From assembly GCA_964035575.1 (NCBI GenBank), contig OZ037834.1, positions 310,001 through 374,000 of the forward strand: DNA of 64,000 nucleotides. Reading direction: 5' to 3'. The notes beneath the pieces are model-generated. The model was not told the origin of the DNA, searched no databases, and worked only from the letters and a program-made list of their open reading frames with translations. Of this stretch, positions 5,926-64,000 are shown one piece after another (positions within the stretch are counted from its first letter, which is position 1; the number at the start of each line of letters is the position of its first letter). The translations under genes and the position numbers were made by a program. This DNA comes from Rhynchopus sp. YZ270_cl-10. Lineage: Eukaryota.

Positions 5926-5999
5926 ACTTTTTTTCACGCCAGTGAAACTTTTTTTCACGCCTCCAGCGAAATTACTAAGAGCAAGCGTGAAAAAAAGCT

Positions 6000-6056
6000 C
6001 ACTTTATTTCACGCCCCGTTTGTGAAGGATCCCAGCAAAAAGTCATTTTCACATGT
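6000..6056. repeat. Right inner inverted repeat flanking the YR ORF (partner 4584-4641)
   Basis: Reverse complement of 4584-4641, including an exact run ttttgctgggatccttcacaaacg. Confidence 0.9.
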
Positions 6057-29820: not shown

Positions 29821-29979
29821 TCCACCACTCCCCCCTGTCCTCACCCCTATCCCCACACCCCTCCTCACACAAAACAGAAAATTATCCTTCCCATTCTCCC
29901 CCAAAAAACCCCTGTTACTGGGTCTTTTTCTTAAAAACCCCCTCTTTTTTTTTTTCTTTCCAAAAAACCTATTACCAAG

Positions 29980-32900
29980 ATGGGTGCCGACCTCCGCACC
30001 CTTCTGTGGCCTACGGTGGTCTGGCTCGCTGTTTTACAAACTTTTTTTACGACCTCCGAGGCTCGCATTGCGTTCGACTATAAGAAGAACGTGTACTTCA
30101 TGGGGCGGCTTGACTGCCACTCCATCCACTTTACCACAGGGGACTGCACCTGCAAGACGCCTCTGGAGCAGGTCGTGGTCCGCATCGACGAGAACTTTCA
30201 GTACAGACGCGACTACCTTTACTGTGATTCGTGCTCAGCTGACGGTGTCTCCTATTCGTACAACAAATACAAAGGGATCCTAACGTTAACCGCAGACCCT
30301 CCAATCCCAATGGAAGACTTCATTTCAGTGCTTGCAACAAAAGTCCGTTTTAGAAGTACCTCCAAATCCACCAAGGTCCGCCGTGTCAGTTGGTCATATG
30401 GTTCTGTACCACGCAATCCCGAGAACGGTCATTTATATAAGATAACATATATGACAGATTTGAACGGAAGAAGCTGTGGAAGAAACGAATGCCCTTGGGA
30501 CCGTGCGCAGGCGATTTGCGCGGACCCGAAGAACGACCAATTTGGGCTGATTGGATACCTTGCCACGGTTACCTCGAAGGAGGAGAACGACTTCCTTTCT
30601 GGCATGCACACCAGCAAAACCCGCTACGTCTATCTCGGAGCTACCGACGCAGGCACAGAGGGGCAATGGAAATGGGTGACCGGCCCGGAAGGATGCCCTG
30701 ATACCTACGACCCAAACGGGGCTCCTGCACTACGTAGTGCCTGCGACCTTGGGTACCCCCTCCCCGTTCAAAAGGACCCTTGCACCGGAACACAATGCAC
30801 CGGAGGTACCGACCTCAGCTACACCAAATGGTCTTCTGCACAGCCGAACGAAGGTGGGTCACGATGCAACAGATACTCCGACTGCAGGGCCTCTGGACAG
30901 GATTATATGACAATGACGAGAGACGGGTACTGGGGGGATTTCTCCTACTATGCATCATCCTCGCGGTATTATGCATGCGAATGGGGTGGGGTAGGAGAGC
31001 TTTGCATGGATAAGGAAGATTTTGGAGGTTCCGAAGAGCTTTTCTTGTCGTGCAGCTACATCAGAAGGAAGAGTTCTTGTAAAAGCGCAGCACCCGTCGG
31101 CAGATGCGAATGGTCAGGCGGAAAATGTCGCGACGGAAGCTGCTACAAATTTGATACCGAATCCGAATGTGATACCGATCTCTCATGCGATTGGGACACC
31201 GCTGTCAAGCCTGTCCAATGTGTAGTAGGGTACTGCCAGACACACTACCTCGAGCAGGACACATGCAACGCTGATGACCGCCACCCCTGCCATTGGTATT
31301 CTGATATCGCATCGCCAAACCAATGCCAGACGCTGGACTGTACGATCATTCATGAGCGTTGCGACTGTCTGCACCAACACGAACACTGCTTCTGGGATGG
31401 AGCCAGCTGTCTGACCCTCGACACCACTGTCGGCTGCAGCCGCCACTACACAGACGAAGCTGCCTGCCACGCAGACCTAGAATGCAGCTGGAACTCCAAC
31501 TTCGAGCTGCCCTGCGTCACTAGCGCTTGCTACTACCAATGCGACGAAGCCACCTGCCTCAGCCACACCTGCCACTGGACAGGCTCACGCTGCGAGAACG
31601 ACCCTACCGACTGCGCCAGCCTAGACGAAGCCACCTGCAAGACCACCGGCAAATGCATCTGGAACGCATTCTACAAACCTGGCCAGTGCACCGAGGATGT
31701 CTGCCGCCCTATGACCGACATCCCTGCCTGCGAATCCCTCGAAGTCCAAGCACCCCTCCCCTGCGTCATCGTAGCCGGAGGAGGTGACCCCGACTTCTGC
31801 AATGTCAGCCCCTGTCATTGGATGCCCGGCTCGCTCTTCCCCTGCGAGCCAAAGCTCTGCATGCACCTCGACCCCACCAGCTGTGACGCCGACGAGCAAT
31901 GCAAATGGGACGCACCCAACCCAATCGACCCTACCCTCGGGCCAGGAGACATCGTACTGTACTGCAAGGAGCTGCTGTGTGAATACTCCTCACAGCCTGC
32001 TTGCGAGGCAGACATCGAACAACGCTGTGAATGGGACGCCTCTGGCAACTGCGTGCCACTTCCTTGCGTCGAAGCGATCACAGAGAACCAATGCAGTGAT
32101 GACCCGCAATGCCATTGGGATGTGCAGATCCAGCCCCCGAGGTGCGTTCTCTCAAAGTGTTCACGTGAGGGGCGTACGAAGGAAGCCTGCGTGGAGCACC
32201 CTGACTGTATGTGGGTGTCCTCGACTGCGACGTCGCCGATTGCGCATTGCAAAGTGCTGGACTGCTCCAGCCTCGACACTGCCTGCCAATGCTACGAAAA
32301 CCCCATCTGCACCTTCAACGCTGTCACCGGGGAGTGCAACCCCCCTATCTACACTACCTGCCCAGATCTTGACATTGGCTTTCTCATCGACGGGTCGGGG
32401 AGTATGTCACGCTCCTTTGGTGGGCATCCGCACGGATTCTACGCGCTCATCGCTCTCATGAAGGAATGGGTCTCCAGCGTCCCTCTGACCGGAGAGGACT
32501 ACACCGTCGGGGGCGACAGTGTGGCTCGTGGCAAAGGATTTCGTGTTTCTTTCACACAATTCTCCCGCGCCGACCCCGGCCCTGGAGTGGACCACCCCAT
32601 ACACTGTAGTGTCGGACAGTGCGCTAACGGCCATTTAACTGGAGACCTCGACGAGCTTCTTGGCGAGCTTGAGTGGCACAGAACACACTACCAGCGCTAC
32701 TGGACCTACATCCACGATGCCCTCGCGGATGTTGCTGACAACACCTTCGACCCTGCGCACTCACCCCCGCATCGCATGCACGTTGTTGTCATCATTGCAG
32801 ACGGAGGACTCACCGACTTCACCGGACGAGCCTGCTCTATCAATCAATACCCTTGCCCAACCGGAAAGGACTGGCGGTATAAACCAGAATACCTGGGCAT

Positions 32901-35900
32901 GGTGCAAGACGCGTATGAACGCTTGATGGACGACAACGTGGTCGTCTTCGGTATTGTCATGAAGCGCTACAGCTATAGAACCGTCTACGATATCGACGCG
33001 GAAGTGACCATGAAAAAGCTTGTCACCCAACCCGCAGACGAGCACTACCTGCCCCTTGAGGTGGAAGAAATCAAATCCGACGTACTCTACGCTCTCTGCG
33101 ACCCAACCTCGACCTTCGGCCGTGTCATTTCACCTCCGGTCAACCTCACGCATCTTCCCTGCCCATCATGGGGTTTCCAAGATGAGTGCAACGCAGACGC
33201 ACAATGCGAATGGCAGACCCCAGCCCTCACAACATGCGAGGGTGAAAACATGGAAAACGCCTGCCCGAACCTGAACTGCCACAACGTTCCTTCCCTTTAC
33301 AAAAACGCCTATGCCTGCAACCAATGCGTTCTCGCAAGATCCATTATTACGTGCGGAAACACTATCGTTGGCGGAATTTTGGGGACATGCCAGCCGACCC
33401 ATTGCATTCACTGCTGTGACGCAAACTGTTGCGAAGCTGACCCTGCTTGCAACTGGATTCCCGGGGTCGACGCATGCGAGCGCCGGGTCTGCGAATACAC
33501 TACCGAGGCAGAATGCAACACCGACCCGGACCTTCTCTGCGAATGGAACACCACCGCCTCGCCGCCTACCTGCCAACTCAAGCACTGCGAAGCGACCTTT
33601 ATTATGGAGAAATGCGACCTCAAACCTGAATGCGAATGGGACGCTTCCACCATCGCCTCGCCCCCAGAATGCCTCAAGGTCGATGTCTGCAACACACACA
33701 TCACCGAGGCCGACTGCCACGCCGACACAACATGCCAATGGAACTGCACCGAATCCACCTGCAGGCAGTCCGAATGCTACGTTACCTCAGAGGTGGAATG
33801 CAAGGCTCTCGATGAATGCCTCTGGGATCACACCCACGGATGCAAAGAAAACCATTGTGCCGACTTTGAATCTGACATTGAATGCAGTGCAACCTGTAAT
33901 AACTGTACCTGGGATGATTCTGCAACAAGACCGCACTGCAGAGAGGTCCTTTGTATGAGCTATTCCGAGACAGAATGCGCGAATGTGACGAACTGCCGAT
34001 GGGTAGGCGGAGAATGCATCGAAAGCTACTGCGCAAAGTACGAAGAAAACGTTGCTGCCTGCGGGCAAGACCCTCGATGCGAATTTCTCGCTGACGTCGA
34101 CCCCGCAGGATGCTTCCCTACTGACTGCACTGCAACCCATGGAGGCATTCCTTTCCACGACCTGGACGCAACAACATGCACTGCAGACGCAAACTGCAAG
34201 ACAGCAGTAGACTCAACGGGAGACCCGATCTGTGTACCACAGCTTTGCAGCGATTTTCTTAGCGCATGCGATTGCAACGATCTGCCGGATTGTTATTGGG
34301 ACAGCGTCGCAGGAAGCTGTGTCAACCCTGCGAGAGAAGCCTGCCCTGACCTTGATGTTGCCATCCTTCTTGGCTCCCCTGACGCATTGGACGGTGAGTT
34401 CTCAGGATACTACGACGGTTTCGAAGGACTTATCAACGAAATCCAGTCCTTCGTCTCCACAACCACCTTGACAGGAGAGTCCAGCACCGTCCCTTCCACC
34501 GCAACTGGAGGAAACATGAGACTAGCGTTCATCCAATATGGCGCAACCGGCGGCGTCTGGCAATGCAAAAACGATGGGTCCGGCTGTGCAGGGAACTGTT
34601 CGAACCCGCTCCTGCCTACTGGGGCGCAGTGTACGGATGGGGGTTTTAGTGGTTTAAGAGACGAGATTGTGACCGATTTGAATTGGCATCAGAACAACAT
34701 CATGGCGTCGAGCGACAACTATCTGCCAGCTGCCTTAGACGCGGCGGCGACCCTCTTTGCGACCACTCCTACCCACAGACAAAAGGTCTTAATCATTGTG
34801 AACAACTTCCCATTAAGCCCGGTGGACCCACAACAGACGGAAATTCCTGCAAAAATGACGGCATTGGCAGCATCCTCAGTACACACCTTCACTGCAGTGG
34901 TGCGGGATCAACCTCTTCCAACTGCGGCCGAGACGTTGGCGGAAACGGTCTTCAAGCCGATCGCTTCAGCGCCATCGGACACCCACTATGCAGGTGTTCA
35001 GTTGACACAGCTCAGCACCGTGCTCTCTGAGATGTGCATGCCAGGTGGTACATTTGGTGCAGAGATCTCGAAGCTTAGCAACCCTACGGCGGCAGCATTG
35101 CCGTGTAACAGTTGGGGGTCTGAGACGACATGCCGGGCAGACCCTGCGTGCGCATGGAACGCAGCAACGCCGGTCTGTACTGGAGCTGGTGAATGCGCGA
35201 ATATCAACTGCAGAACGCTCGCTCTAGGGCAGACCGGGTTTCAGTGCAGTGAATGCACCCTGGTGGCGGGGTCTGTAGTGTGTACAGCTGGGGCGAGCTA
35301 CCCGGTGTCTGGATACTGCGATATCAGTCCTTGCCAGGATTCGTGTACGGAGCCTCTGTGTGAGGCTGCGTCTGGTGGATGTACCTGGGATGCGACACAG
35401 TGTGAGACGACGCAGTGCGACTACGTTGACGAACCGACCTGCGAGGCTGACCCAATCTGTGTCTGGAACACCACTGCCGAGCCTGAGGAGTGCACCGTCA
35501 CAGAGTGCCTCCACTTCGCACCGGGCACCTGCGACGCCGACTCCGCCTGTATGTGGGACCCCAACACCGAGGAATGCATTGCCAAGGTCCCCGACTGTGC
35601 CTCCCTCACCTCACCGCAGGCCTGCAACGCACACTACACTGATGCCTGCGGGTGGGACTGCGAGACTGGAACCTGCACGGTGAAGCACTGCATCCACCCC
35701 TTCGATACGGAGTGCCTGGCGGACCCCTTATGCCTTTGGGACGACGACTCTGAGTTGTGCCACAAGATTCGGTGCACGGCTACCACGGAGCAGACTTGCT
35801 CTACCGACGTAGCATGCACCTGGGACGGAAGCTCCTGCACGATGCACGCCTGCTACAAACACGCTAGCGAGTTTTTGTGCGAATCCGACCCGAACTGCTT

Positions 35901-56900: not shown

Positions 56901-59900
56901 AAGCGGAGGGCAATTATGCACAGATCCCGACTTGCTCGTTGAGCACGACTGGATGTGTGTGTGTCCCTCACCTGCAACTGGCAGTGCGACTGCGCAAGTG
57001 TCCGACTGCGTTCTCGATGAGTGCCTTGTGCAGAACTGCCCGACATGCGCAAACACAACCTGTACCGACAACGACCAGACGTGCTCAGACCCTGACACCG
57101 ACTGGAACGCTGTGAACGACTGGGTGTGCACCTGCCCTCCTCCTTCAACTGGAAGTGCGATTGCAAACTTTGCTGAGTGTGCGCTGAACGAGTGCACTGT
57201 GCCGTCCTGCGACACTTGTGAGAAGGATGTGTGCTCGAACGGAGGACAGACTTGCATTGATCCCATTCCGCTTTACACAACGAAGAGCGACTGGATCTGT
57301 GCGTGCCCTCCTCCTTCGAACGCAACCCTTGTTGGTGGACTTGCAGACTGCAGCTTTGACGAGTGTGATCTGTACCGTGACACGTGCGTTAAGGCGGATC
57401 AGTTGTGCGAGGACACGAATCTGTTGAGCTTGGATGACTGGGAGTGCGTGTGTCCGTCTCCTGCCACGGGGCGTAACACTGCTGCTGTGTCTAGTTGTGT
57501 GATTGATGAGTGCACTGCCACCTGTGCGTCGTGTGCTGACACAACGTGTACTGGTGCAGGACAGGAATGTCTGGATGTGGACACCGATTGGCGTTCGCTG
57601 AATGATTGGAACTGTTCGTGCATTGCGCCTTTGGTGGGCTCTGCAGTTGTCTCTGTAGCTACGTGTACCATTGACGAATGTGCTGCGACCTGTGCACACT
57701 GTGCGAATGGTGCCTGCAGTCCTGGGCAGACGTGCTTCGATCCGGACCACTCTGCACAGAATACGAGCAACTGGGTGTGCACCTGTGAGCCTCCGACACA
57801 CAACTTCAAGGTTGCCGGCACCGCTAACTGCGAGATCGATGAGTGTCGCGAACACGAGGAGACGTGCCACGAACACGGTCAGGTCTGTGTGGATCCTGAC
57901 AAGACTCCCTCGAGCCTCAACGACTGGGTCTGCCTTTGTGTACCACCAGCAGTCGAGCCCCTCGTGAACGCGACGATGACCGCAGCACACTGCCACTACA
58001 CCGGCGAATGCGAGGACGATCCTGCGATTGCCGCCATCTGCACAGACAAGGGACAGAACTGCTACGACCCCTTCCCCAACCCAAGCAGCACAGGCGACTG
58101 GCAGTGCGTCTGCGTGGACCCTGCAAAGGGCAGCAACGCCACAGCGGCACCTGCAGACTGTGTGCTCGACCAGTGCATCGAGGTGTGCGCATCGTGTGCA
58201 GACATCGGTGACGGCAACGGTAACGTCTGTGCTTCAGAAGGGCAGACGTGTGTCGACCCTGACGTTAGTGCCCTCATCCTGCACGACTGGTACTGCCTCT
58301 GCGTGTCGCCATTGACACAGGTCGGTGGCGCCGCACCCGCCTCTCTTCTTAAGCCAGCGCTGTGCGAGTTAGACGAATGCACAGCAACCTGTGGTACCTG
58401 CTCCGCAGACACGTGCACTTCTGTAAGCCAAACCTGCCTTGATTCGAACAAGGACCCTGGCGCCACTGCAGATTGGACGTGTACATGTACAACGGGCGTG
58501 GGTGTTGCGACGGCGAAGGCTGCTACCTGCGTCTGCAATGAGTGTCTTGCCAACAGTAACACCTGCACAAATGCAGGGCAGACTTGCCTGGACCACGACA
58601 TGACGTGTCCGTCGCAGTCTGATTGGATCTGTGAGTGTGCGCCACCGTCAGTATCGACAAACACTGCCGCTGTCGCCATTTGCGAGTACAACGAATGCGA
58701 TGCACACTCCTCCACCTGCACGGCCAAATCCCAGACTTGCACAGACCCAAGCCTGACTACAGCAGATGACTGGTTCTGTACTTGCCAGTCTCCGAAGTCT
58801 GGTGTTGCGACTGCAGCAGCAGCCGACTGCACAATTGATGAGTGCGCAGAGACCTGTGCAACTTGTTCTGCCGACACCTGCACTTCAGTTGGCCAGACGT
58901 GCACCGACCCCAACACTGACGACGGATCACTGGGTGACTGGACTTGCACTTGCGTATTGCCTGGCGTTGGCACTTCAACAGCAGCATCTGCGACGTGTGT
59001 GTGCAACGAATGCCTTGCGAATGGCATCACCTGCACAGGAGCCGACCAGACCTGCTTCGACAGCGACCAGACTTGCCCTCCGAAGAGTGATTGGGTGTGC
59101 ACATGCAAGGCTCCGTCTGCGAGTGAGAAAGTTGCTGGTGTTGCCATCTGCGAGTACGATGAGTGCACTGAGAAGGCCATTACGTGCACAGGTGCAGGCC
59201 AGACCTGCGAGGACAAGCTACTTACTACACCTGACGACTGGGTCTGCACCTGTCCTCCACCGTCACACGGTGATGCTGTTGCTGACAAGGCTGACTGTGT
59301 CTTGGATGAGTGCATTGAGACATGCCCGTCTTGTGCAAATGCAACCTGTTCAAGTGTGGGTCAGACTTGCATTGACCCCGACACGAACTCGCTTGTGCTG
59401 AACGACTGGCTGTGCAAGTGCACAGTTGGTACTGGCAGCGCAACAGGAACAGCTGCAGCATGCATCTGCAACGAGTGTGATGTGCACAACGCAACATGTG
59501 CTGCAGCAGGACAGACTTGTTTCGAACCGAACGATCTCTGTGCTGTACCTAACGACTGGTTGTGCAAGTGCTCGCCACCTTCTATTTCAGAGAAACTTGG
59601 CGGAGTTGCGATCTGCAGATACGACGAATGTGACGAGAAGGGAGGCATCTGTACTTCAGCATCGCAGACTTGCACAGACCCTGATGACACCGTTTACGAC
59701 AACTGGTTCTGTACTTGCCAGTCTCCGAAGTCTGGTGTTGCGACTGCAGCAACAGCGAACTGCACAATTGACGAATGCACGGAGACCTGTGCAACTTGTT
59801 CTGCTGACACCTGCACTTCAGTTGGCCAGACGTGCACCGACCCCAACACTGACGACGGATCACTGGGTGACTGGACTTGCACTTGCGTATTGCCTGGTAT

Positions 59901-62900
59901 CGGTTCTTCAACAGCAGCATCTGCGACGTGTGTGTGCAACGAATGCCTTGCGAATGGCATCACCTGCACAGGAGCCGACCAGACCTGCTTCGACAGCGAC
60001 CAGACTTGCCCTCCGAAGAGTGATTGGGTGTGCACATGCAAGGCTCCATCTGCGAGTGAGAAGGTTGCTGGTGTTGCCATCTGCGAGTACGATGAGTGCA
60101 CTGAGAAGGCCATTACGTGCACAGGTGCAGGTCAGACCTGCGAGGACAAGCTCCTGACCACACCTGACGACTGGGTTTGCACCTGTCCTCCACCGTCGCA
60201 CGGTGATGCTGTTGCTGACAAGGCTGACTGTGTCTTGGATGAGTGCATTGAGACATGCCCGACCTGTGCAAATGCAACCTGTTCCAGTGTGGGTCAGACT
60301 TGCATTGACCCCGACACGAGCTCGCTTGTGCTGAACGACTGGCTGTGCAAGTGCACAGTTGGTACTGGCAGCGCCACAGGAACAGCAGCAGCATGCATCT
60401 GCAACGAGTGTGATGTGCACAACGCAACATGTGCTGCAGCAGGACAGACTTGTTTCGAACCGAACGATCTTTGTGCTGTACCTGATGACTGGTTGTGCAA
60501 GTGCTCGCCACCTTCTATTTCAGAGAAACTTGGTGGGGTTGCGATCTGCAGATACGACGAATGTGACGAGAAGGGAGGTATCTGTACGTCAGCATCGCAG
60601 ACTTGCACAGACCCTGATGACACCGTTTACGACAACTGGTTCTGTACTTGCCAGTCTCCGAAGTCCGGTGTTGCGACTGCAGCAGCAGCCGACTGCACAA
60701 TTGACGAATGCACGGAGACCTGTGCAACTTGTTCTGCCGACACCTGCACTTCAGTTGGCCAGACGTGCACCGACCCCAACACTGACGACGGATCACTGGG
60801 TGACTGGACCTGCACTTGCGTATTGCCTGGTATCGGTTCTTCAACAGCAGCATCTGCGACGTGTGTGTGCAACGAATGCCTTGCGAATGGCATCACCTGC
60901 ACAGGAGCCGACCAGACCTGCTTCGACAGCGACCAGACTTGCCCTCCGAAGAGTGACTGGGTGTGCACATGCAAGGCTCCATCTGCGAGTGAGAAGGTTG
61001 CTGGTGTTGCCATCTGCGAGTACGATGAGTGCACTGAGAAGGCCATTACGTGCACAGGTGCAGGCCAGACCTGCGAGGACAAGCTCCTTACTACACCTGA
61101 CGACTGGGTGTGCACCTGTCCTCCACCGTCACACGGTGATGCTGTTGCTGACAAGGCTGACTGTGTTTTGGATGAGTGCATTGAGACATGCCCGACCTGT
61201 GCAAATGCAACCTGTTCCAGTGTGGGTCAGACTTGCATTGACCCCGACACGAACTCGCTTGTGCTGAACGACTGGCTGTGCAAGTGCACAGTTGGTACTG
61301 GCAGCGCAACAGGAACAGCTGCAGCATGCATCTGCAACGAGTGTGATGTGCACAACGCAACATGTGCTGCAGCAGGACAGACTTGTTTCGAACCGAACGA
61401 TCTCTGTGCTGTACCTAACGACTGGTTGTGCAAGTGCTCGCCACCTTCTATTTCAGAGAAACTTGGCGGAGTTGCGATCTGCAGATACGACGAATGTGAC
61501 GAGAAGGGAGGTATCTGTACTTCAGCATCGCAGACTTGCACAGACCCTGATGACACCGTTTACGACAACTGGCTCTGTACTTGCCAGTCTCCGAAGTCTG
61601 GTGTTGCGACTGCAGCAGCAGCCGACTGCACAATTGATGAGTGCACGGAGACCTGTGCAACTTGTTCTGCTGACACGTGCACTTCAGTTGGCCAGACGTG
61701 CACCGACCCCAACACTGACGACGGATCTCTTGGTGACTGGACTTGTGACTGTGTGTTGCCTGGTGTTGGCACTTCAACAGCAGCATCTGCGACGTGTGTG
61801 TGCAACGAATGCCTTGCGAATGGCATCACCTGCACAGGAGCCGACCAGACTTGCTTCGACAGCGACCAGACTTGCCCTCCGAAGAGTGATTGGGTGTGTA
61901 CATGCAAGGCTCCATCTGCGAGTGAGAAGGTTGCTGGTGTTGCCATCTGCGAGTACGATGAGTGCACTGAACAATCGATCACCTGCACAGGTGCAGGCCA
62001 GACCTGCGAGGACAAGCTACTTACTACACCTGACGACTGGGTCTGCACCTGTCCTCCACCGTCACACGGTGATGCTGTTGCTGACAAGGCTGACTGTGTC
62101 TTGGATGAGTGCATTGAGACATGCCCGACCTGTGCAAATGCAACCTGTTCCAGTGTGGGTCAGACTTGCATTGACCCGGACACGAACTCGCTTGTGCTGA
62201 ACGACTGGCTGTGCAAGTGCACAGTTGGTACTGGCAGCGCCACAGGAACAGCTGCAGCATGCATCTGCAACGAGTGTGATGTGCACAACGTAACATGTGC
62301 TGCAGCAGGACAGACTTGTTTCGAACCGAACGATCTTTGTGCTGTACCTAACGACTGGTTGTGCAAGTGCTCGCCACCTTCTATTTCAGAGAAACTTGGT
62401 GGGGTTGCGATCTGCAGATACGACGAATGTGACGAGAAGGGAGGTATCTGTACTTCAGCATCGCAGACTTGCACAGACCCTGATGACACCGTTTACGATA
62501 ACTGGTTCTGTACTTGCCAGTCTCCGAAGTCTGGTGTTGCGACTGCAGCAACAGCGAACTGCACAATTGACGAATGCACGGAGACCTGTGCAACTTGTTC
62601 TGCCGACACCTGCACTTCAGTTGGCCAGACGTGCACCGACCCCAACACTGACGACGGATCACTGGGTGACTGGACCTGCACTTGCGTATTGCCTGGTATC
62701 GGTTCTTCAACAGCAGCATCTGCGACGTGTGTGTGCAACGAATGCCTTGCGAATGGCATCACCTGCACAGGAGCCGACCAGACCTGCTTCGACAGCGACC
62801 AGACTTGCCCTCCGAAGAGTGATTGGGTGTGCACATGCAAGGCTCCATCTGCGAGTGAGAAGGTTGCTGGTGTTGCCATCTGCGAGTACGATGAGTGCAC

Positions 62901-64000
62901 TGAGAAGGCCATTACGTGCACAGGTGCAGGTCAGACCTGCGAGGACAAGCTCCTGACCACACCTGACGACTGGGTCTGCACCTGTCCTCCACCGTCACAC
63001 GGTGATGCTGTTGCTGACAAGGCTGACTGTGTCTTGGATGAGTGCATTGAGACATGCCCGACCTGTGCAAATGCAACCTGTTCCAGTGTGGGTCAGACTT
63101 GCATTGACCCGGACACGAACTCGCTTGTGCTGAACGACTGGCTGTGCAAGTGCACAGTTGGTACTGGCAGCGCCACAGGAACAGCTGCAGCATGCATCTG
63201 CAACGAGTGTGATGTGCACAACGCAACATGTGCTGCAGCAGGACAGACTTGTTTCGAACCGAACGATCTTTGTGCTGTACCTAACGACTGGTTGTGCAAG
63301 TGCTCGCCACCTTCTATTTCAGAGAAACTTGGTGGGGTTGCGATCTGCAGATACGACGAATGTGACGAGAAGGGAGGCATCTGTACTTCAGCATCGCAGA
63401 CTTGCACAGACCCTGATGACACCGTTTACGACAACTGGTTCTGTACTTGCCAGTCTCCGAAGTCTGGTGTTGCGACTGCAGCAACAGCGAACTGCACAAT
63501 TGACGAGTGTGAAGAGACCTGTGCAACTTGTTCTGCTGACACCTGCACTTCAGTTGGCCAGACGTGCACCGACCCCAACACTGACGACGGATCTCTTGGT
63601 GACTGGGTCTGCGACTGTGTGTTGCCTGGTATCGGTTCTTCAACAGCAGCATCTGCGACGTGTGTGTGCAACGAATGCCTTGCGAATGGCATCACCTGCA
63701 CAGGAGCCGACCAGACTTGCTTCGACAGCGACCAGACTTGCCCTCCGAAGAGTGATTGGGTGTGCACATGCAAGGCTCCATCTGCGAGTGAGAAGGTTGC
63801 TGGTGTTGCCATCTGCGAGTACGATGAGTGCACTGAGAAGGCCATTACGTGCACAGGTGCAGGTCAGACCTGCGAGGACAAGCTCCTGACCACACCTGAC
63901 GACTGGGTTTGCACCTGTCCTCCACCGTCGCACGGTGATGCTGTTGCTGACAAGGCTGACTGTGTCTTGGATGAGTGCATTGAGACGTGCCCGACCTGTG
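29980..64000 (+). CDS. Giant secreted/surface Cys-rich protein, 3' end outside the window (>11,340 codons): signal peptide, C-type lectin, Cys repeats, 5 vWA domains, long EGF-like arrays
   Basis: ATG at 29980 follows a pyrimidine tract and AG. Translation starts MGADLRTLLWPTVVWLAVLQTFFTTSEA. Spot-checked lines read open in this frame, and the ORF track lists no stop-terminated ORF in this frame past 29980, consistent with no stop to the window end. Confidence 0.92.
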   Translation, partial: MGADLRTLLWPTVVWLAVLQTFFTTSEARIAFDYKKNVYFMGRLDCHSIHFTTGDCTCKTPLEQVVVRIDENFQYRRDYLYCDSCSADGVSYSYNKYKGILTLTADPPIPMEDFISVLATKVRFRSTSKSTKVRRVSWSYGSVPRNPENGHLYKITYMTDLNGRSCGRNECPWDRAQAICADPKNDQFGLIGYLATVTSKEENDFLSGMHTSKTRYVYLGATDAGTEGQWKWVTGPEGCPDTYDPNGAPALRSACDLGYPLPVQKDPCTGTQCTGGTDLSYTKWSSAQPNEGGSRCNRYSDCRASGQDYMTMTRDGYWGDFSYYASSSRYYACEWGGVGELCMDKEDFGGSEELFLSCSYIRRKSSCKSAAPVGRCEWSGGKCRDGSCYKFDTESECDTDLSCDWDTAVKPVQCVVGYCQTHYLEQDTCNADDRHPCHWYSDIASPNQCQTLDCTIIHERCDCLHQHEHCFWDGASCLTLDTTVGCSRHYTDEAACHADLECSWNSNFELPCVTSACYYQCDEATCLSHTCHWTGSRCENDPTDCASLDEATCKTTGKCIWNAFYKPGQCTEDVCRPMTDIPACESLEVQAPLPCVIVAGGGDPDFCNVSPCHWMPGSLFPCEPKLCMHLDPTSCDADEQCKWDAPNPIDPTLGPGDIVLYCKELLCEYSSQPACEADIEQRCEWDASGNCVPLPCVEAITENQCSDDPQCHWDVQIQPPRCVLSKCSREGRTKEACVEHPDCMWVSSTATSPIAHCKVLDCSSLDTACQCYENPICTFNAVTGECNPPIYTTCPDLDIGFLIDGSGSMSRSFGGHPHGFYALIALMKEWVSSVPLTGEDYTVGGDSVARGKGFRVSFTQFSRADPGPGVDHPIHCSVGQCANGHLTGDLDELLGELEWHRTHYQRYWTYIHDALADVADNTFDPAHSPPHRMHVVVIIADGGLTDFTGRACSINQYPCPTGKDWRYKPEYLGMVQDAYERLMDDNVVVFGIVMKRYSYRTVYDIDAEVTMKKLVTQPADEHYLPLEVEEIKSDVLYALCDPTSTFGRVISPPVNLTHLPCPSWGFQDECNADAQCEWQTPALTTCEGENMENACPNLNCHNVPSLYKNAYACNQCVLARSIITCGNTIVGGILGTCQPTHCIHCCDANCCEADPACNWIPGVDACERRVCEYTTEAECNTDPDLLCEWNTTASPPTCQLKHCEATFIMEKCDLKPECEWDASTIASPPECLKVDVCNTHITEADCHADTTCQWNCTESTCRQSECYVTSEVECKALDECLWDHTHGCKENHCADFESDIECSATCNNCTWDDSATRPHCREVLCMSYSETECANVTNCRWVGGECIESYCAKYEENVAACGQDPRCEFLADVDPAGCFPTDCTATHGGIPFHDLDATTCTADANCKTAVDSTGDPICVPQLCSDFLSACDCNDLPDCYWDSVAGSCVNPAREACPDLDVAILLGSPDALDGEFSGYYDGFEGLINEIQSFVSTTTLTGESSTVPSTATGGNMRLAFIQYGATGGVWQCKNDGSGCAGNCSNPLLPTGAQCTDGGFSGLRDEIVTDLNWHQNNIMASSDNYLPAALDAAATLFATTPTHRQKVLIIVNNFPLSPVDPQQTEIPAKMTALAASSVHTFTAVVRDQPLPTAAETLAETVFKPIASAPSDTHYAGVQLTQLSTVLSEMCMPGGTFGAEISKLSNPTAAALPCNSWGSETTCRADPACAWNAATPVCTGAGECANINCRTLALGQTGFQCSECTLVAGSVVCTAGASYPVSGYCDISPCQDSCTEPLCEAASGGCTWDATQCETTQCDYVDEPTCEADPICVWNTTAEPEECTVTECLHFAPGTCDADSACMWDPNTEECIAKVPDCASLTSPQACNAHYTDACGWDCETGTCTVKHCIHPFDTECLADPLCLWDDDSELCHKIRCTATTEQTCSTDVACTWDGSSCTMHACYKHASEFLCESDPNCFFSTDDCSICQIRECSATYGTATADCTADLLGIHCQVDPTSGTCVDLKCDDYNALINGGACPCKEDVRCEFDQSVTPPKCKKAEYENCPNLDIAIALDASCLTNDYFGMHPSGFEGMLEVVRDFIRVAPLTGEDASVGVGSTDATDSMRFALSTYTTDAEVAECPECSCGSTSLGINAGTTECGKFTGSRAQLEADLAWHRENHDPTSSCNPSLQSLMDFASNLFVESGPSRTKVLVILGKGNADVGVVAVRDALAAIGVKVFAVQVTKNAVPSVLDNDMAGKMQASLVTAPATSTQVTTDLAGVRAQFEQFCSPTGSFGSVVTQGLVTSSNIKACSELGTSTFCNEKATCQWSSAAVACEDHPCFPHCSEVLCLADTPNNCVWDATTHTCQKTICEDIATPTACTNNPVCTYDVAAAPACFPTPCLASTEADCNVMGAGCTWDGDTCIVTPCYHNDTANCEAEAGCEWDNVCPDPADHLCKVTPCVAAVHSTAQGCDADPVCQWSAQSSCERLACTEFTTEKCCTSFEDCTWDISQTPVVCSLKYCQKTYATASVSAACTDDTQCEFNTTSQTCVAKNCNDLEECDCRADPVCYWDTTTSPIENCRNAEYGECPIMDIVFLVDASTQMTRQFGRHANGFTGVMSLLRSWAGTLPLSGELGGTDAATPSGIRIGVIQFAGQKPSGPFAGSSRALITPTSVGSEGRLTGEYGEVSGDITWQSQNMLATSDVMLEKGLTAAGDMFDPLHALNGRRRVLIIITQGVVHDTLSLLSAQRVLSDEQVEVFGIVIRSASPTQTSIDAETELKKIASNPADSYVQGVTLDELGATLLETMCKPDGTFGQIIVPPASSTARIPCGNYAADAQLCSRDAGCVFDAVTEFCIDSSCIRHCEESVCTADTAGLCVWNSTTDECWKETLCSHTTETTCDADVTGCTWNSSATPPCEERECNLPTQDSCEALPLCYWDPTITPFACNPLPCLYDAATPCGNDPACEWKVSACSGEDVCVERICLHGVQDECTTDPLCEWDGSGCVEQKCARYTSEGCCGAVDECAWTPDSSVCEVEECSLLGDADTCDANPLCQYRANATGTEKCLPLVCSTLTARCECNQRINCYHKSNPTTGQCTPSEYGLCPTMDIGVLLDGSLSMTRSFGSHRNGFEAVGEIMRRWVSELPLNFEPGGTQAGSTPDNGGARVGFVQYGADDATGTAVSKLAPFALAGGSGGMLSGVASELGADITWHESNVYSKGSRIGSALQKAQLMFAAAPVDARRHIMFVIADDEILDSGSVLGSIPADVEVFGIVIRRGAAKTATDAAAEKSLKQITSDDHVTNIEISELAAVLNGLCDPNGPWGSMLVTAAPAPTTGVHFPCPDYVVKSTCEEDVGCLWSDAGVRCEDHPCLGFCTEPECEAAAATANCSWNTTADSCFKEPTPVCTCKYNTTDIAYNKDKCSADVLCTWDVALSECMFDECKGDNLCATVGQSCADPNIMPCSQKDWVCTCPDPSTGSGTAQVAACVIDECADTCPTCAGSACTAGFQECDDPDTSADSLSDWVCACIPPATGVALAGTAQCVLDECTVATNCAGCELDLCSKSGQTCNDPNTDSQSTGDWICICAPPSTATSVTSLADCSVDECDLYSTCVDAGQTCNDPDLLQQGDWVCTCPPPSSGTAVQQVSVCTLDECDVQGCPTCADDTCGPGQTCDDPNTYADQLSDWTCTCIAPSTGKATANAAVCALNECVIQNCPTCANSICTDASQTCFDPSPVTTSTEDWLCVCAPPANATKLQGPAVCHFDECETHSGTCTAVDQTCEDPDTLKQGDWMCLCVTPFAGTATAQPADCTLDECDVQDCLTCANSTCSDAGQTCVDADTAGTSLFSWECVCPAPSSGSAVANSAQCDLDECDIVGCATCEDDLCANGGQTCLDPNPYMKNLGDWFCICAPPSNATLVGALADCRVDECVINAAVCDNSGQTCADPDLHNQDDWTCNCPSPATGVATALAASCVLDECVVQNCPTCANSTCTDATQTCVEPDADWHSLNDWVCVCPPPSVGNATSNVAVCALDECTATCTSCEADVCSAGGQTCQDPKPFYTDKNDWFCACPPPSNATLVGALADCRVDECVMHGSTCTASDQTCTDPDLLVEHDWMCVCPPPATGSATAQVSDCVLDECLVQNCPTCANTTCTDNDQTCSDPDTDWNAVNDWVCTCPPPSTGSAIANFAECALNECTVPSCDTCEKDVCSNGGQTCIDPIPLYTTKSDWICACPPPSNATLVGGLADCRVDECSFYGGTCTNVGQTCDDPDQLVEHDWTCNCPSPVTGVATALAASCVLDECVVQNCPTCANSTCTDATQTCVEPDADWHSLNDWVCVCPPPSVGNATSNVAVCALDECTATCTSCEADVCSAGGQTCQDPKPFYTDKNDWFCACPPPSNATLVGALADCRVDECVMHGSTCTASDQTCTDPDLLVEHDWMCVCPSPATGSATAQVSDCVLDECLVQNCPTCANTTCTDNDQTCSDPDTDWNAVNDWVCTCPPPSTGSAIANFAECALNECTVPSCDTCEKDVCSNGGQTCIDPIPLYTTKSDWICACPPPSNATLVGGLADCRVDECSFYGGTCTNVGQTCDDPDQLVEHDWTCNCPSPATGVATALAASCVLDECVVQNCPTCANSTCTDATQTCVEPDADWHSLNDWVCVCPPPSVGNATSNVAVCALDECTATCPSCEADVCSAGGQTCQDPKPFYTDKNDWFCACPPPSNATLVGALADCRVDECVMHGSTCTASDQTCTDPDLLVEHDWMCVCPSPATGSATAQVSDCVLDECLVQNCPTCANTTCTDNDQTCSDPDTDWNAVNDWVCTCPPPSTGSAIANFAECALNECTVPTCDTCEKDVCSNGGQTCIDPIPLYTTKSDWICACPPPSNATLVGGLADCRVDECSFYGGTCTNVGQTCDDPDQLVEHDWTCNCPSPATGVATALAASCVLDECVVQNCPTCANSTCTDATQTCVEPDADWHSLNDWVCVCPPPSVGNATSNVAVCALDECTATCPSCEADVCSAGGQTCQDPKPFYTDKNDWFCACPPPSNATLVGALADCRVDECVMHGSTCTASDQTCTDPDLLVEHDWMCVCPSPATGSATAQVSDCVLDECLVQNCPTCANTTCTDNDQTCSDPDTDWNAVNDWVCTCPPPSTGSAIANFAECALNECTVPSCDTCEKDVCSNGGQTCIDPIPLYTTKSDWICACPPPSNATLVGGLADCRVDECSFYGGTCTNVGQTCDDPDQLVEHDWTCNCPSPATGVATALAASCVLDECVVQNCPTCANSTCTDATQTCVEPDADWHSLNDWVCVCPPPSVGNATSNVAVCALDECTATCPSCEADVCSAGGQTCQDPKPFYTDKNDWFCACPPPSNATLVGALADCRVDECVMHGSTCTASDQTCTDPDLLVEHDWMCVCPPPATGSATAQVSDCVLDECLVQNCPTCANTTCTDNDQTCSDPDTDWNAVNDWVCTCPPPSTGSAIANFAECALNECTVPTCDTCEKDVCSNGGQTCIDPIPLYTTKSDWICACPPPSNATLVGGLADCRVDECSFYGGTCTNVGQTCDDPDQLVEHDWTCNCPSPATGVATALAASCVLDECVVQNCPTCANSTCTDATQTCVEPDADWHSLNDWVCVCPPPSVGNATSNVAVCALDECTATCPSCEADVCSAGGQTCQDPKPFYTDKNDWFCACPPPSNATLVGALADCRVDECTLYGTTCTSGGQLCTDPDLLVEHDWMCVCPSPATGSATAQVSDCVLDECLVQNCPTCANTTCTDNDQTCSDPDTDWNAVNDWVCTCPPPSTGSAIANFAECALNECTVPSCDTCEKDVCSNGGQTCIDPIPLYTTKSDWICACPPPSNATLVGGLADCRVDECSFYGGTCTNVGQTCDDPDQLVEHDWTCNCPSPATGVATALAASCVLDECVVQNCPTCANSTCTDATQTCVEPDADWHSLNDWVCVCPPPSVGNATSNVAVCALDECTATCPSCEADVCSAGGQTCQDPKPFYTDKNDWFCACPPPSNATLVGALADCRVDECVMHGSTCTASDQTCKDPDLLVEHDWMCVCPSPATGSATAQVSDCVLDECLVQNCPTCANTTCTDNDQTCSDPDTDWNAVNDWVCTCPPPSTGSAIANFAECALNECTVPSCDTCEKNICGASGQTCIDPIPLYTTKSDWICACPPPSNATLVGGLADCRVDECSFYGGTCTNVGQTCDDPDQLVEHDWTCNCPSPATGVATALAASCVLDECVVQNCPTCANSTCTDATQTCVEPDADWHSLNDWVCVCPPPSVGNATSNVAVCALDECTATCPSCEANLCSNNGQTCQDPKPFYTDKNDWFCACPPPSNATLVGALADCRVDECTLYGTTCTSGGQLCTDPDLLVEHDWMCVCPSPATGSATAQVSDCVLDECLVQNCPTCANTTCTDNDQTCSDPDTDWNAVNDWVCTCPPPSTGSAIANFAECALNECTVPSCDTCEKDVCSNGGQTCIDPIPLYTTKSDWICACPPPSNATLVGGLADCRVDECSFYGGTCTNVGQTCDDPDQLVEHDWTCNCPSPATGVATALAASCVLDECVVQNCPTCANSTCTDATQTCVEPDADWHSLNDWVCVCPPPSVGNATSNVAVCALDECTATCPSCEADVCSNNGQTCQDPKPFYTDKNDWFCACPPPSNATLVGALADCRVDECTLYGTTCTSGGQLCTDPDLLVEHDWMCVCPSPATGSATAQVSDCVLDECLVQNCPTCANTTCTDNDQTCSDPDTDWNAVNDWVCTCPPPSTGSAIANFAECALNECTVPSCDTCEKDVCSNGGQTCIDPIPLYTTKSDWICACPPPSNATLVGGLADCRVDECSFYGGTCTNVGQTCDDPDQLVEHDWTCNCPSPATGVATALAASCVLDECVVQNCPTCANSTCTDATQTCVEPDADWHSLNDWVCVCPPPSVGNATSNVAVCALDECTATCPSCEANLCSNNGQTCQDPKPFYTDKNDWFCACPPPSNATLVGALADCRVDECTLYGTTCTSGGQLCTDPDLLVEHDWMCVCPSPATGSATAQVSDCVLDECLVQNCPTCANTTCTDNDQTCSDPDTDWNAVNDWVCTCPPPSTGSAIANFAECALNECTVPSCDTCEKDVCSNGGQTCIDPIPLYTTKSDWICACPPPSNATLVGGLADCRVDECSFYGGTCTNVGQTCDDPDQLVEHDWTCNCPSPATGVATALAASCVLDECVVQNCPTCANSTCTDATQTCVEPDADWHSLNDWVCVCPPPSVGNATSNVAVCALDECTATCPSCEANLCSNNGQTCQDPKPFYTDKNDWFCACPPPSNATLVGALADCRVDECTLYGTTCTSGGQLCTDPDLLVEHDWMCVCPSPATGSATAQVSDCVLDECLVQNCPTCANTTCTDNDQTCSDPDTDWNAVNDWVCTCPPPSTGSAIANFAECALNECTVPSCDTCEKDVCSNGGQTCIDPIPLYTTKSDWICACPPPSNATLVGGLADCRVDECSFYGGTCTNVGQTCDDPDQLVEHDWTCNCPSPATGVATALAASCVLDECVVQNCPTCANSTCTDATQTCVEPDADWHSLNDWVCVCPPPSVGNATSNVAVCALDECTATCPSCEANLCSNNGQTCQDPKPFYTDKNDWFCACPPPSNATLVGALADCRVDECTLYGTTCTSGGQLCTDPDLLVEHDWMCVCPSPATGSATAQVSDCVLDECLVQNCPTCANTTCTDNDQTCSDPDTDWNAVNDWVCTCPPPSTGSAIANFAECALNECTVPSCDTCEKDVCSNGGQTCIDPIPLYTTKSDWICACPPPSNATLVGGLADCRVDECSFYGGTCTNVGQTCDDPDQLVEHDWTCNCPSPATGVATALAASCVLDECVVQNCPTCANSTCTDATQTCVEPDADWHSLNDWVCVCPPPSVGNATSNVAVCALDECTATCPSCEADVCSAGGQTCQDPKPFYTDKNDWFCACPPPSNATLVGALADCRVDECEKHGITCTNGGQLCTDPDLLVEHDWMCVCPSPATGSATAQVSDCVLDECLVQNCPTCANTTCTDNDQTCSDPDTDWNAVNDWVCTCPPPSTGSAIANFAECALNECTVPSCDTCEKDVCSNGGQTCIDPIPLYTTKSDWICACPPPSNATLVGGLADCRVDECSFYGGTCTNVGQTCDDPDQLVEHDWTCNCPSPATGVATALAASCVLDECVVQNCPTCANSTCTDATQTCVEPDADWHSLNDWVCVCPPPSVGNATSNVAVCALDECTATCPSCESDVCSAGGQTCQDPKPFYTDKNDWFCACPPPSNATLVGALADCRVDECTLYGTTCTSGGQLCTDPDLLVEHDWMCVCPSPATGSATAQVSDCVLDECLVQNCPTCANTTCTDNDQTCSDPDTDWNAVNDWVCTCPPPSTGSAIANFAECALNECTMPSCDTCEKDVCSNGGQTCIDPIPLYTTKSDWICACPPPSNATLVGGLADCRVDECSFYGGTCTNVGQTCDDPDQLVEHDWTCNCPSPATGVATALAASCVLDECVVQNCPTCANSTCTDATQTCVEPDADWHSLNDWVCVCPPPSVGNATSNVAVCALDECTATCPSCESDVCSAGGQTCQDPKPFYTDKNDWFCACPPPSNATLVGALADCRVDECTLYGTTCTSGGQLCTDPDLLVEHDWMCVCPPPATGSATAQVSDCVLDECLVQNCPTCANTTCTDNDQTCSDPDTDWNAVNDWVCTCPPPSTGSAIANFAECALNECTVPSCDTCEKDVCSNGGQTCIDPIPLYTTKSDWICACPPPSNATLVGGLADCRVDECSFYGGTCTNVGQTCDDPDQLVEHDWTCNCPSPATGVATALAASCVLDECVVQNCPTCANSTCTDATQTCVEPDADWHSLNDWVCVCPPPSVGNATSNVAVCALDECTATCPSCEADVCSAGGQTCQDPKPFYTDKNDWFCACPPPSNATLVGALADCRVDECTLYGTTCTSGGQLCTDPDLLVEHDWMCVCPSPATGSATAQVSDCVLDECLVQNCPTCANTTCTDNDQTCSDPDTDWNAVNDWVCTCPPPSTGSAIANFAECALNECTVPSCDTCEKDVCSNGGQTCIDPIPLYTTKSDWICACPPPSNATLVGGLADCSFDECDLYRDTCVKADQLCEDTNLLSLDDWECVCPSPATGRNTAAVSSCVIDECTATCASCADTTCTGAGQECLDVDTDWRSLNDWNCSCIAPLVGSAVVSVATCTIDECAATCAHCANGACSPGQTCFDPDHSAQNTSNWVCTCEPPTHNFKVAGTANCEIDECREHEETCHEHGQVCVDPDKTPSSLNDWVCLCVPPAVEPLVNATMTAAHCHYTGECEDDPAIAAICTDKGQNCYDPFPNPSSTGDWQCVCVDPAKGSNATAAPADCVLDQCIEVCASCADIGDGNGNVCASEGQTCVDPDVSALILHDWYCLCVSPLTQVGGAAPASLLKPALCELDECTATCGTCSADTCTSVSQTCLDSNKDPGATADWTCTCTTGVGVATAKAATCVCNECLANSNTCTNAGQTCLDHDMTCPSQSDWICECAPPSVSTNTAAVAICEYNECDAHSSTCTAKSQTCTDPSLTTADDWFCTCQSPKSGVATAAAADCTIDECAETCATCSADTCTSVGQTCTDPNTDDGSLGDWTCTCVLPGVGTSTAASATCVCNECLANGITCTGADQTCFDSDQTCPPKSDWVCTCKAPSASEKVAGVAICEYDECTEKAITCTGAGQTCEDKLLTTPDDWVCTCPPPSHGDAVADKADCVLDECIETCPSCANATCSSVGQTCIDPDTNSLVLNDWLCKCTVGTGSATGTAAACICNECDVHNATCAAAGQTCFEPNDLCAVPNDWLCKCSPPSISEKLGGVAICRYDECDEKGGICTSASQTCTDPDDTVYDNWFCTCQSPKSGVATAATANCTIDECTETCATCSADTCTSVGQTCTDPNTDDGSLGDWTCTCVLPGIGSSTAASATCVCNECLANGITCTGADQTCFDSDQTCPPKSDWVCTCKAPSASEKVAGVAICEYDECTEKAITCTGAGQTCEDKLLTTPDDWVCTCPPPSHGDAVADKADCVLDECIETCPTCANATCSSVGQTCIDPDTSSLVLNDWLCKCTVGTGSATGTAAACICNECDVHNATCAAAGQTCFEPNDLCAVPDDWLCKCSPPSISEKLGGVAICRYDECDEKGGICTSASQTCTDPDDTVYDNWFCTCQSPKSGVATAAAADCTIDECTETCATCSADTCTSVGQTCTDPNTDDGSLGDWTCTCVLPGIGSSTAASATCVCNECLANGITCTGADQTCFDSDQTCPPKSDWVCTCKAPSASEKVAGVAICEYDECTEKAITCTGAGQTCEDKLLTTPDDWVCTCPPPSHGDAVADKADCVLDECIETCPTCANATCSSVGQTCIDPDTNSLVLNDWLCKCTVGTGSATGTAAACICNECDVHNATCAAAGQTCFEPNDLCAVPNDWLCKCSPPSISEKLGGVAICRYDECDEKGGICTSASQTCTDPDDTVYDNWLCTCQSPKSGVATAAAADCTIDECTETCATCSADTCTSVGQTCTDPNTDDGSLGDWTCDCVLPGVGTSTAASATCVCNECLANGITCTGADQTCFDSDQTCPPKSDWVCTCKAPSASEKVAGVAICEYDECTEQSITCTGAGQTCEDKLLTTPDDWVCTCPPPSHGDAVADKADCVLDECIETCPTCANATCSSVGQTCIDPDTNSLVLNDWLCKCTVGTGSATGTAAACICNECDVHNVTCAAAGQTCFEPNDLCAVPNDWLCKCSPPSISEKLGGVAICRYDECDEKGGICTSASQTCTDPDDTVYDNWFCTCQSPKSGVATAATANCTIDECTETCATCSADTCTSVGQTCTDPNTDDGSLGDWTCTCVLPGIGSSTAASATCVCNECLANGITCTGADQTCFDSDQTCPPKSDWVCTCKAPSASEKVAGVAICEYDECTEKAITCTGAGQTCEDKLLTTPDDWVCTCPPPSHGDAVADKADCVLDECIETCPTCANATCSSVGQTCIDPDTNSLVLNDWLCKCTVGTGSATGTAAACICNECDVHNATCAAAGQTCFEPNDLCAVPNDWLCKCSPPSISEKLGGVAICRYDECDEKGGICTSASQTCTDPDDTVYDNWFCTCQSPKSGVATAATANCTIDECEETCATCSADTCTSVGQTCTDPNTDDGSLGDWVCDCVLPGIGSSTAASATCVCNECLANGITCTGADQTCFDSDQTCPPKSDWVCTCKAPSASEKVAGVAICEYDECTEKAITCTGAGQTCEDKLLTTPDDWVCTCPPPSHGDAVADKADCVLDECIETCPTC
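30421..30990 (+). other. C-type lectin-like domain of the giant protein
   Basis: ENGHLY...WDRAQAIC...GYLATVTSKEENDFL...YLGATD...EGQWKWVTGPE...YTKWSSAQPN...WGD...ACEWG. Confidence 0.85.
32359..39930 (+). other. Five von Willebrand factor A domains separated by Cys-rich spacers (starts ~32359, 34342, 36160, 37738, 39289)
   Basis: CPDLDIGFLIDGSGS, CPDLDVAILLGSPDA, CPNLDIAIALDASCL, CPIMDIVFLVDASTQ, CPTMDIGVLLDGSLS. Later vWA-type strands include RVGFVQY, VVVIIADG and VFGIVI. Confidence 0.85.
41834..57353 (+). repeat. Coding tandem array 1: 975 bp (325 aa) unit, ~16 near-identical copies
   Basis: Exact 975 bp period (shadow ORFs at 42038, 43013, 43988, 44963...). Unit is six (D/N)EC...QTC...DWxCxCP modules. 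Confidence 0.95.
58769..64000 (+). repeat. Coding tandem array 2: 933 bp (311 aa) unit, >5.5 copies, runs off the window
   Basis: 933 bp period (shadow ORFs at 59426, 60359, 61292). Six Cys modules per unit. Confidence 0.95.

Follow-up and report, generated by a model that had tools for sequence, protein, structure and literature searches.

What does a gene encode whose reading frame runs for more than 34 kb and is still open where the sequence ends, and what use would a cell have for the product? The question is raised by a 64,000-nucleotide stretch of DNA from Rhynchopus sp. YZ270_cl-10 (assembly GCA_964035575.1, contig OZ037834.1, positions 310,001 to 374,000, forward strand), here called the window. 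Frame +1 has no stop from position 29935 to the window end, and translation from the ATG at 29980 gives 11,340 codons, with the frame still open at the edge; over the identical DNA, the remaining five frames contain 155–566 stops each. The product begins with a head of lectin and von Willebrand factor A (vWA) domains and continues as a stalk of modules resembling epidermal growth factor (EGF). We propose, with a probability of roughly 0.5, that it is a giant recycling capture receptor, crossing the membrane once, for food particles, prey surfaces or macromolecules. This reading is favoured because vWA-bearing relatives share a tail motif, likely relatives co-fractionate with endosomes, and AP-2 and clathrin are present.

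The locus holds a genuine gene, diplonemid in origin and longer than 11,340 codons. Its translated part has a mass of 1.19 MDa and 1,377 Cys residues, and the GC content, ~37–45% across the first 20 kb of the window, is 55–59% within the giant open reading frame (ORF). A preliminary description of this stretch, made from the letters alone, had reported an open frame from a signal peptide to the window edge that was missing from the ORF track. Translation bears this out, and the likely reason for the omission is that the frame is listed only once open-ended frames are allowed. The AG that follows a pyrimidine tract just before the ATG is likely, from its sequence, a trans-splice (spliced-leader) acceptor. 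Logan DNA contigs from two runs match 29769–37086 and 37658–41700 with zero differences, Logan contigs match the unique linker equally well, and a run of a second study matches piecewise; the best-matching runs may themselves be the source of the window. None of five runs listed as carrying the sequence is an RNA run, which has no bearing on expression. The same comparison returned extra contigs with differences at 37089–37431 and 40672–41195, which suggest that this genome carries another member of the family.

The closest relative is a Rhynchopus humris transcript (P0086) with the same head, in which 1,934 of 3,844 aligned residues are identical (50%). Its vWA domains 1–5 pair one-to-one with those of the window in a tree (Shimodaira–Hasegawa-like approximate likelihood ratio test support, 93–100). 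Since P0086 is a transcript, the orthologue is transcribed, and since it is colinear with residues 14–3909 of the window protein and aligns without a gap of eight or more, the first 11.7 kb of the gene hold no sizeable introns. The earlier claim of a single exon is thus supported for that part; the absence of introns inside the arrays is supported indirectly. An intronless diplonemid gene is not odd in itself, given that introns occur in 41% of Diplonema papillatum genes, according to the available part of one report (PMC10161547). Every stalk match that carries a species name comes from a diplonemid. D. papillatum, Flectonema, Lacrimia and Artemidia are named outright; Rhynchopus, Sulcionema and Hemistasia are either named or read from the id prefix. 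More distant relatives (P0102-P0104 and P0186) have the N-domain, lectin, vWA domains and short repeats, and no stalk modules.

Head, stalk modules and tandem arrays

Pfam matches and repeat counts agree with the domain order first described, from an N-domain through a C-type lectin, short repeats and five vWA domains to the stalk. The N-domain has no match in Pfam or among PDB sequences. Together with the lectin it also matches bacterial surface proteins (26–45% identity), and in an unrooted tree of both domains, which does not decide for or against a bacterial origin, the bacterial sequences group in a clade apart and support for most inner branches is weak. PDB sequence matches of the lectin are CLEC4F, mincle and DC-SIGN. 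The Ca2+ and sugar site of C-type lectins is marked by EPN or QPD, E, and WND. The corresponding motifs in the window read QPN, QDY and WGD, and they are degenerate in R. humris too; EPN, ED and WND are intact in lectins of relatives from Hemistasia and Artemidia and in P0089.

About 40 short C..C..CxW..C repeats were counted, and similar blocks separate all the vWA domains. In a structure model of a later block, the repeat is a helix plus a beta-hairpin; it has no tested fold match, because the search with a model of short repeats plus vWA4 gave vWA domains in the 50 matches listed. Pfam returned nothing credible for either the short repeats or the stalk; matches to SPACA7, DUF2272 and HHH lay below the cut-off and were dismissed. 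The vWA domains match Pfam PF00092 above its cut-off, and the modelled vWA4 matches the integrin alpha1 I-domain (E 1.6e-9 in a fold search). The metal-ion-dependent adhesion site (MIDAS) of vWA domains has the motif DxSxS..T..D. It is near-complete in only two of the five window domains, vWA1 and vWA5, and complete in 17 of the 42 vWA domains of six proteins checked.

The stalk has 148 module starts in the window, the first at residue 3439. More than 100 modules with six or eight cysteines had been described; the number is confirmed, whereas the cysteine pattern is less uniform, with 73 of the 147 complete modules having 8 Cys, 49 having 6, 12 having 9 and 13 having 7. Only 55 distinct sequences occur among these 147. 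Each 9-Cys module directly precedes a 7-Cys module (12/12), which suggests that the odd cysteines pair within the chain, and such a pair likely clamps the linker to the next module. The pair occurs in only 4 of 222 relatives, Flectonema neradi P0033 included.

An EGF-like fold is predicted for these modules. A six-module model (predicted local distance difference test 89.6, predicted template modelling score 0.54) has Notch-1 EGF20-24 as its top Foldseek match (E 6.3e-4, the sole match below 0.001), with EMR2/CD97 EGFs among the further fold matches. In a VIA search EGF chains fill the first 17 rows, led by a match with Z 4.7, a root-mean-square deviation of 9.8 and 193 aligned residues, although no Z exceeds 4.7, weak on VIA's own scale. 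At the sequence level, the stalk profile matches nothing in PDB and the modules have no Pfam EGF match. The consensus of calcium-binding EGF (cbEGF) modules is D/N-x-D/N-E/Q..D/N..Y/F. Window modules lack its first D/N; they have D or E at C3+2 (147/147, and 2,119 of 2,129 modules of relatives), keep Q at C3-2 and carry an extra D/N before W. The conserved [DN]E before C1 and aromatic residue before C4 hold by construction, as modules were picked by [DNG][EQ]C plus the aromatic. We read the module as a diplonemid cbEGF variant, which may bind Ca2+. The cbEGF arrays of Notch, fibrillin and CD97/EMR2 are alike in fold matches, [DN]E before C1, D at C3+2 and the aromatic before C4, whereas the window modules differ in a two-residue linker without the first acidic ligand, a longer C3-C4 loop, the extra D before W, CxxC inserts and the 9/7-Cys pairs.

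A vWA5-plus-stalk query returned 288 clusters at E up to 0.001. Of 187 relatives, 149 contain the module two or more times, and in 80 of these a membrane helix lies behind it. Partner domains include CAP, RCC1, Calx-beta, astacin, ricin B, PAN, fasciclin, LamG, DOMON, Sushi and FNII. The module is a diplonemid-wide spacer family that lacks a Pfam model (P0024-P0083, P0112-P0210).

A Notch-like receptor, signalling or sensing force at cell-cell contacts or in mating, would accord with the Notch EGF arrays being the best structural matches of the stalk model, and some D. papillatum relatives are automatically named 'Neurogenic locus Notch protein'. We nevertheless regard such a role as very unlikely, as the tails of relatives with vWA domains and short repeats are 36–83 residues long and carry no signalling domain. 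LNR and ankyrin matches are absent from the relatives scanned and from the window, the C-terminus of whose gene lies past the edge.

The size of the gene is due to two recent tandem arrays, A and B, each built of six-module units. All 16 units of array A differ mutually, yet keep the frame and every cysteine. Third codon positions hold 77 of the 131 variable sites in A and 60 of the 94 in B (five full units); by a crude estimate, non-silent variants are, per site, ~0.22 times as frequent as silent ones in A and ~0.17 times in B, and there is no indel between units. The arrays are thus under coding constraint. Variants occur in shared blocks, presumably the trace of unequal crossing-over or gene conversion.

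Copy number was estimated from contigs that match a single unit of each array together with the linker, using the single-copy linker contig as reference; run X4 was excluded from this estimate for its short listed repeat contigs and uneven depth. Seven contigs that match array A exactly have depths of 13.7, 9.4, 12.9, 12.2, 13.3, 7.0 and 11.9 relative to the linker, and their 31-mers occur 13.8, 8.8, 13.6, 13.5, 14.0, 8.9 and 13.3 times in the window. Because these values match, array A is not inflated, and 16 copies fit. For array B, three contigs give 9.8, 10.9 and 10.7 against 5.4, 6.0 and 4.3 window copies; since depth exceeds the copies seen, a rough estimate is ~11 B units in all, of which ~5 likely lie past the edge.

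Such arrays invite the suspicion that the length is an assembly artefact, or that they are an untranslated in-frame intron or satellite. One six-module unit gave rise to all 96 modules of array A, the longest stalk among the relatives has 78 modules, and in the seven relatives checked all modules are distinct. Against these possibilities stand the agreement of depth and copy number over the seven repeat contigs (7.0–13.7 against 8.8–14.0) and the 16 differing units, with frame and cysteines kept and variation mostly silent; the chance of either appears slight.

Second block and membrane helix in the relatives

No membrane helix occurs within the 11,340 residues of the window protein. What lies beyond them may be gauged from relatives. 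The sequence of F. neradi P0033 begins where vWA5 ends and continues with 14 modules, a second N-domain and a lectin. Its landmark modules at 133, 466, 521, 640 and 702 best match window modules at 3439, 9287, 9342, 9620 and 9520; the last two are a 9/7 pair, each matching a neighbouring window copy, and the landmark order is kept. N. karyoxenos P0099, whose last stalk module is common with that of P0033, has 15 modules, an N-domain, a lectin, five vWA domains and a membrane helix, and in D. papillatum P0222 a stalk end is followed by an N-domain, five vWA domains and a membrane helix. R. euleeides P0108 (6,951 residues, no signal peptide, 11 vWA domains) is probably the same second block. In P0087 the head is joined to the second block with zero modules between, a loss that may reflect skipped exons, since P0087 is a gene model. 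These sequences suggest that in relatives the stalk lies between two binding blocks, as a middle spacer whose length varies; the earlier placing of the binding domains at the tip of a stalk finds no support in that form. If five B units and 2,900–7,000 residues are added, the window gene would encode ~16,000–20,000 residues in total. In D. papillatum, 12 near-identical records of a C-terminal vWA block (P0091, P0211-P0221) lie on several small contigs, three of them on one 60-kb contig; they represent an array of genes or, alternatively, one giant gene broken up in the assembly.

The preliminary description had seen a giant adhesin or matrix filament here. A giant disulfide-rich surface protein it is, but a membrane receptor fits better than a matrix or coat filament, because in relatives the chain terminates in a membrane helix followed by a short, predicted sorting tail. 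A secreted or shed filament, cross-linked by vWA domains and odd cysteines in, for example, the mucilaginous coat of sessile cells, would explain why 11,340 residues pass without a helix. Adhesives of marine animals often contain vWA, lectin and EGF domains, and sessile diplonemids make an amorphous adhesive coat, as described in the available part of one study (PMC5845003). We consider it unlikely all the same: the relatives that reach the C-terminus end in the membrane, the adjacent 9/7-Cys pairs (12/12) suggest pairing in the chain rather than between chains, and the window protein has no R-x-[KR]-R site.

Tail motif, endosomal fractions and the hair coat

YxxPhi motifs are bound by adaptor mu subunits. 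Among 17 distinct tails of relatives with vWA domains and short repeats, 10 have such a motif within the first 35 residues (shuffle mean 4.1), as do 10 of 60 stalk-only relatives (shuffle mean 6.1). As for the pattern [YF]xxPhi-x-M, 8 of the 17 have it and none of the 60; its shuffle mean among the former is 0.26, a figure that is not a probability, as the pattern was derived from those sequences and the sequences are related. NPxY was found in none of 14 tails checked. A second tail motif, ~K-[WY]-x-x-x-F, occurs in another subfamily (P0094, P0111, P0040, P0054, P0170, P0209 and P0186).

In the P. papillatum proteome (PMC12697944), of whose table D 3,120 of ~4,870 rows were covered, some unassigned rows lying outside, four likely family rows are listed. 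All four have BSAL_88760 (2,654 residues) as best Bodo match and no T. brucei match. Among the rows listed, two of them fall into a multivesicular-body trafficking cluster (support vector machine scores 0.78 and 0.67), both being enriched in poor medium; the remaining two are unassigned and none of the four is in the cell-membrane cluster (PMC12697944). Markers of the multivesicular-body cluster include Rab7, Rab14, Rab32, VPS41 and V-ATPase, and the same species expresses AP-2 mu and clathrin (PMC12697944).

A capture receptor of this kind would work as follows. The lectin-vWA head would bind ligand through metal-dependent vWA sites, mainly those of vWA1 and vWA5, and Ca2+ and disulfides would stiffen the stalk into a rod of ~0.4–0.5 micrometre, an EGF module being ~3 nm long. 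Past the window would follow about five more array-B units, a second block of N-domain, lectin and vWA domains, one membrane helix and a tail of ~30–80 residues with K-[YF]-x-x-Phi-x-M-E, to be read by an adaptor complex. The sorting tail would carry bound ligand into endosomes, acidic compartments would release it, and the receptor would recycle. Unequal crossing-over in the arrays would alter the reach of the head and leave both binding blocks untouched.

The main rival, possible but in our view the less probable, is a static membrane-anchored adhesin or fine hair-coat component of the apex, flagellar pocket, flagella or shed vesicles, in which the stalk would set hair length and the tail only deliver and turn over the protein. 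The two roles are not mutually exclusive. A glycocalyx and hair coat cover the diplonemid apex, pocket and flagella, and attachment to surfaces by a flagellum has been described, in the available parts of two reports (PMC5845003, PMC10653844). A rod of the estimated length would go better with a hair than with a small vesicle, the stalk carries 100 N-glycosylation sequons and far more acidic residues (D+E 1,122) than basic ones (K+R 184), and recent, constrained stalk growth is what one would expect of a tether that sets reach. However, among the rows listed none of the four likely relatives is in a cell-membrane or flagellar cluster (PMC12697944), vWA-bearing relatives retain the tail motif, which the 60 stalk-only ones lack, and a plain hair needs no second binding block next to the membrane.

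Several points weigh against the capture receptor. The anchor and tail ascribed to the window gene are those of relatives, its own C-terminus lying past the window edge. In P0094 and P0111 a 68-module stalk ends directly at a membrane helix with a different tail, although these two look like a separate subfamily because they have only vWA1-type domains and no 9/7 pair. Three of the ten plain YxxPhi matches are off the aligned position, and D. papillatum tails have F in place of Y. Any ligand is putative. EPN and WND are absent from the window lectin and three of the five vWA domains (vWA2-4) lack a MIDAS. The two endosome-assigned proteins are linked to the family by annotation and the shared Bodo match only, and their co-fractionation would be equally compatible with the turnover of a surface protein. 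The sequence-verified member DIPPA_01852 is classed as 'unknown', with glycosome membrane as best class (0.39), and 3 of 13 family ids were found among the proteome rows listed (PMC12697944). Vesicles of the diplonemid cytopharynx measure 50–100 nm in the part of the report available (PMC10653844); as a rod of 0.5 micrometre does not fit into them, large vesicles or a flexible stalk would be required.

Among known systems, the macrophage mannose receptor family (CD206, DEC-205, Endo180) consists of single-pass receptors with Ca-dependent lectin domains, many of them degenerate, and a short tail with a tyrosine motif, which recycle through endosomes. The proposed receptor would work in the same way. 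It belongs to another lineage, is ~10 times longer and has vWA blocks and an EGF stalk; the ricin-type and FNII domains and the 8–10 tandem C-type lectin-like domains of that family are not part of the window architecture. Megalin/LRP1 and the stabilin scavenger receptors are likewise giant multi-ligand type-I proteins with EGF repeats and endocytic tails. The binding units of the window family are instead vWA and C-type lectin domains, and a Pfam scan that covered 6,833 of the 11,340 residues, the rest being array A repeats, gave no match to LDLa or a YWTD propeller. Nearer in lineage, the bodonins of Bodo saltans are large euglenozoan surface glycoproteins proposed to attach to prey or substrate; in the available text they have ~7 membrane helices and Ser/Thr/Asn-rich ectodomains (PMC4728078), whereas window-type relatives have one helix, a Cys-rich ectodomain and unrelated domains.

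The same N-domain, lectin, vWA, short-repeat and stalk modules occur in unnamed diplonemid proteins, namely R. humris EP00754_P006816, orthologous position by position, F. neradi EP01060_P011198, N. karyoxenos TRINITY_DN96 and D. papillatum KAJ9442392.1 ('Halomucin'), KAJ9444039.1 ('Neurogenic locus Notch protein'), DIPPA_03389 and DIPPA_01852. Their records are mostly fragments, with stalks of 14 (complete), 15–20 (cut) and up to 78 modules against at least 148 in the window, and their database names (Halomucin, Notch, Teneurin-a) are automatic labels. As first noted, the protein is not a named one: no established name was found, and a literature search, whose coverage excluded subscription journals, gave no description of the family. 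Each domain belongs to a recognised kind; undescribed in the searched literature are the size, the stalk module and the arrangement of two blocks around a spacer of variable length.

Tentatively, and with less confidence than in capture itself, we suggest that free-living euglenozoans have a capture receptor of animal-like kind that is so far undescribed, a ~2-MDa 'fishing rod' of half a micrometre for uptake of prey or macromolecules at the feeding apparatus. It would bring together a lectin unit of bacterial type, vWA domains like those of integrins and an EGF module specific to diplonemids, its reach being retuned in each lineage through tandem growth of the middle spacer (0, 14, at least 49 and at least 148 modules). 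If so, it would be among the longest protist membrane proteins known, built in parallel to animal scavenger receptors, and a first molecular handle on food recognition in diplonemids, which are among the most abundant marine heterotrophic protists. The family offers a taggable candidate for food recognition and uptake in a model species. A 2026 paper on the diplonemid feeding apparatus names 17 components, and the terms 'receptor', 'lectin' and 'transmembrane' give no match in its available text (PMC13615690). Genes this large end up fragmented or mis-named in current annotations.

Feature coordinates and neighbouring DNA

Table 1. Features of the giant gene within the window
Feature	Position	Strand	Basis or detail
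AG after pyrimidine tract, then ATG start	29978..29982	+	Sequence; role inferred
Signal peptide, residues 1-28	29980..30063	+	Read by eye; relatives align from ~residue 29
N-domain, residues 29-146	30064..30417	+	Fold not recognised; precedes lectin in window, relatives and bacterial lectin proteins
C-type lectin with Cys-rich insert, residues 147-345	30418..31014	+	Pfam PF00059, 37.5 bits (cut-off 22.6)
Short C..C..CxW..C repeats, first block	31027..32361	+	No Pfam match
vWA 1, from residue 795	32362..33093	+	MIDAS 5/5 positions
vWA 2, from residue 1456	34345..35037	+	MIDAS 0/5
vWA 3, from residue 2062	36163..36837	+	MIDAS 2/5
vWA 4, from residue 2588	37741..38397	+	MIDAS 2/5; predicted fold matches integrin I-domains
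vWA 5, from residue 3105	39292..39927	+	MIDAS 4/5
Nine unique EGF-like modules	40294..41757	+	Cys order 7,8,8,6,8,8,6,8,8, identical to R. humris
Tandem array A	41758..57357	+	16 units of 975 bp (325 residues, six modules), 91.5-99.1% identical
Single-copy linker modules	57358..58689	+	Hold the first 9-Cys/7-Cys pair
Tandem array B	58690..64000	+	Units of 933 bp (311 residues, six modules), 5.7 in window; continues past edge

Upstream of the giant gene, 4860–5876 on the minus strand encodes a 338-residue tyrosine recombinase (Pfam Phage_integrase, 37.2 bits). It is flanked by a 59-bp inverted repeat (4584–4642 and 5999–6056, 88%), with an imperfect palindrome at 4407–4576, and is likely a recombinase-encoding mobile element. 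A short dispersed repeat occurs at 28256–28319, 1–56, 1630–1711 and 11388–11450; its loose ends are A-rich, and with a summed contig depth ~2,500 times that of single copy in its bin it is a very high-copy element.

The plus strand also carries a tandem duplication (19966–24127 and 24265–29820) of an unrecognised gene with its downstream spacer; the only Pfam match is a weak one to a CCCH zinc finger. One gene copy, 24265–27153, is a 962-residue ORF; the other, 19966–22787, is in two frames, split near 21700–21830, which are 57% and 35% identical to the intact copy. The spacers, 22961–24127 and 28636–29820, the latter directly upstream of the giant gene, are 92% identical.

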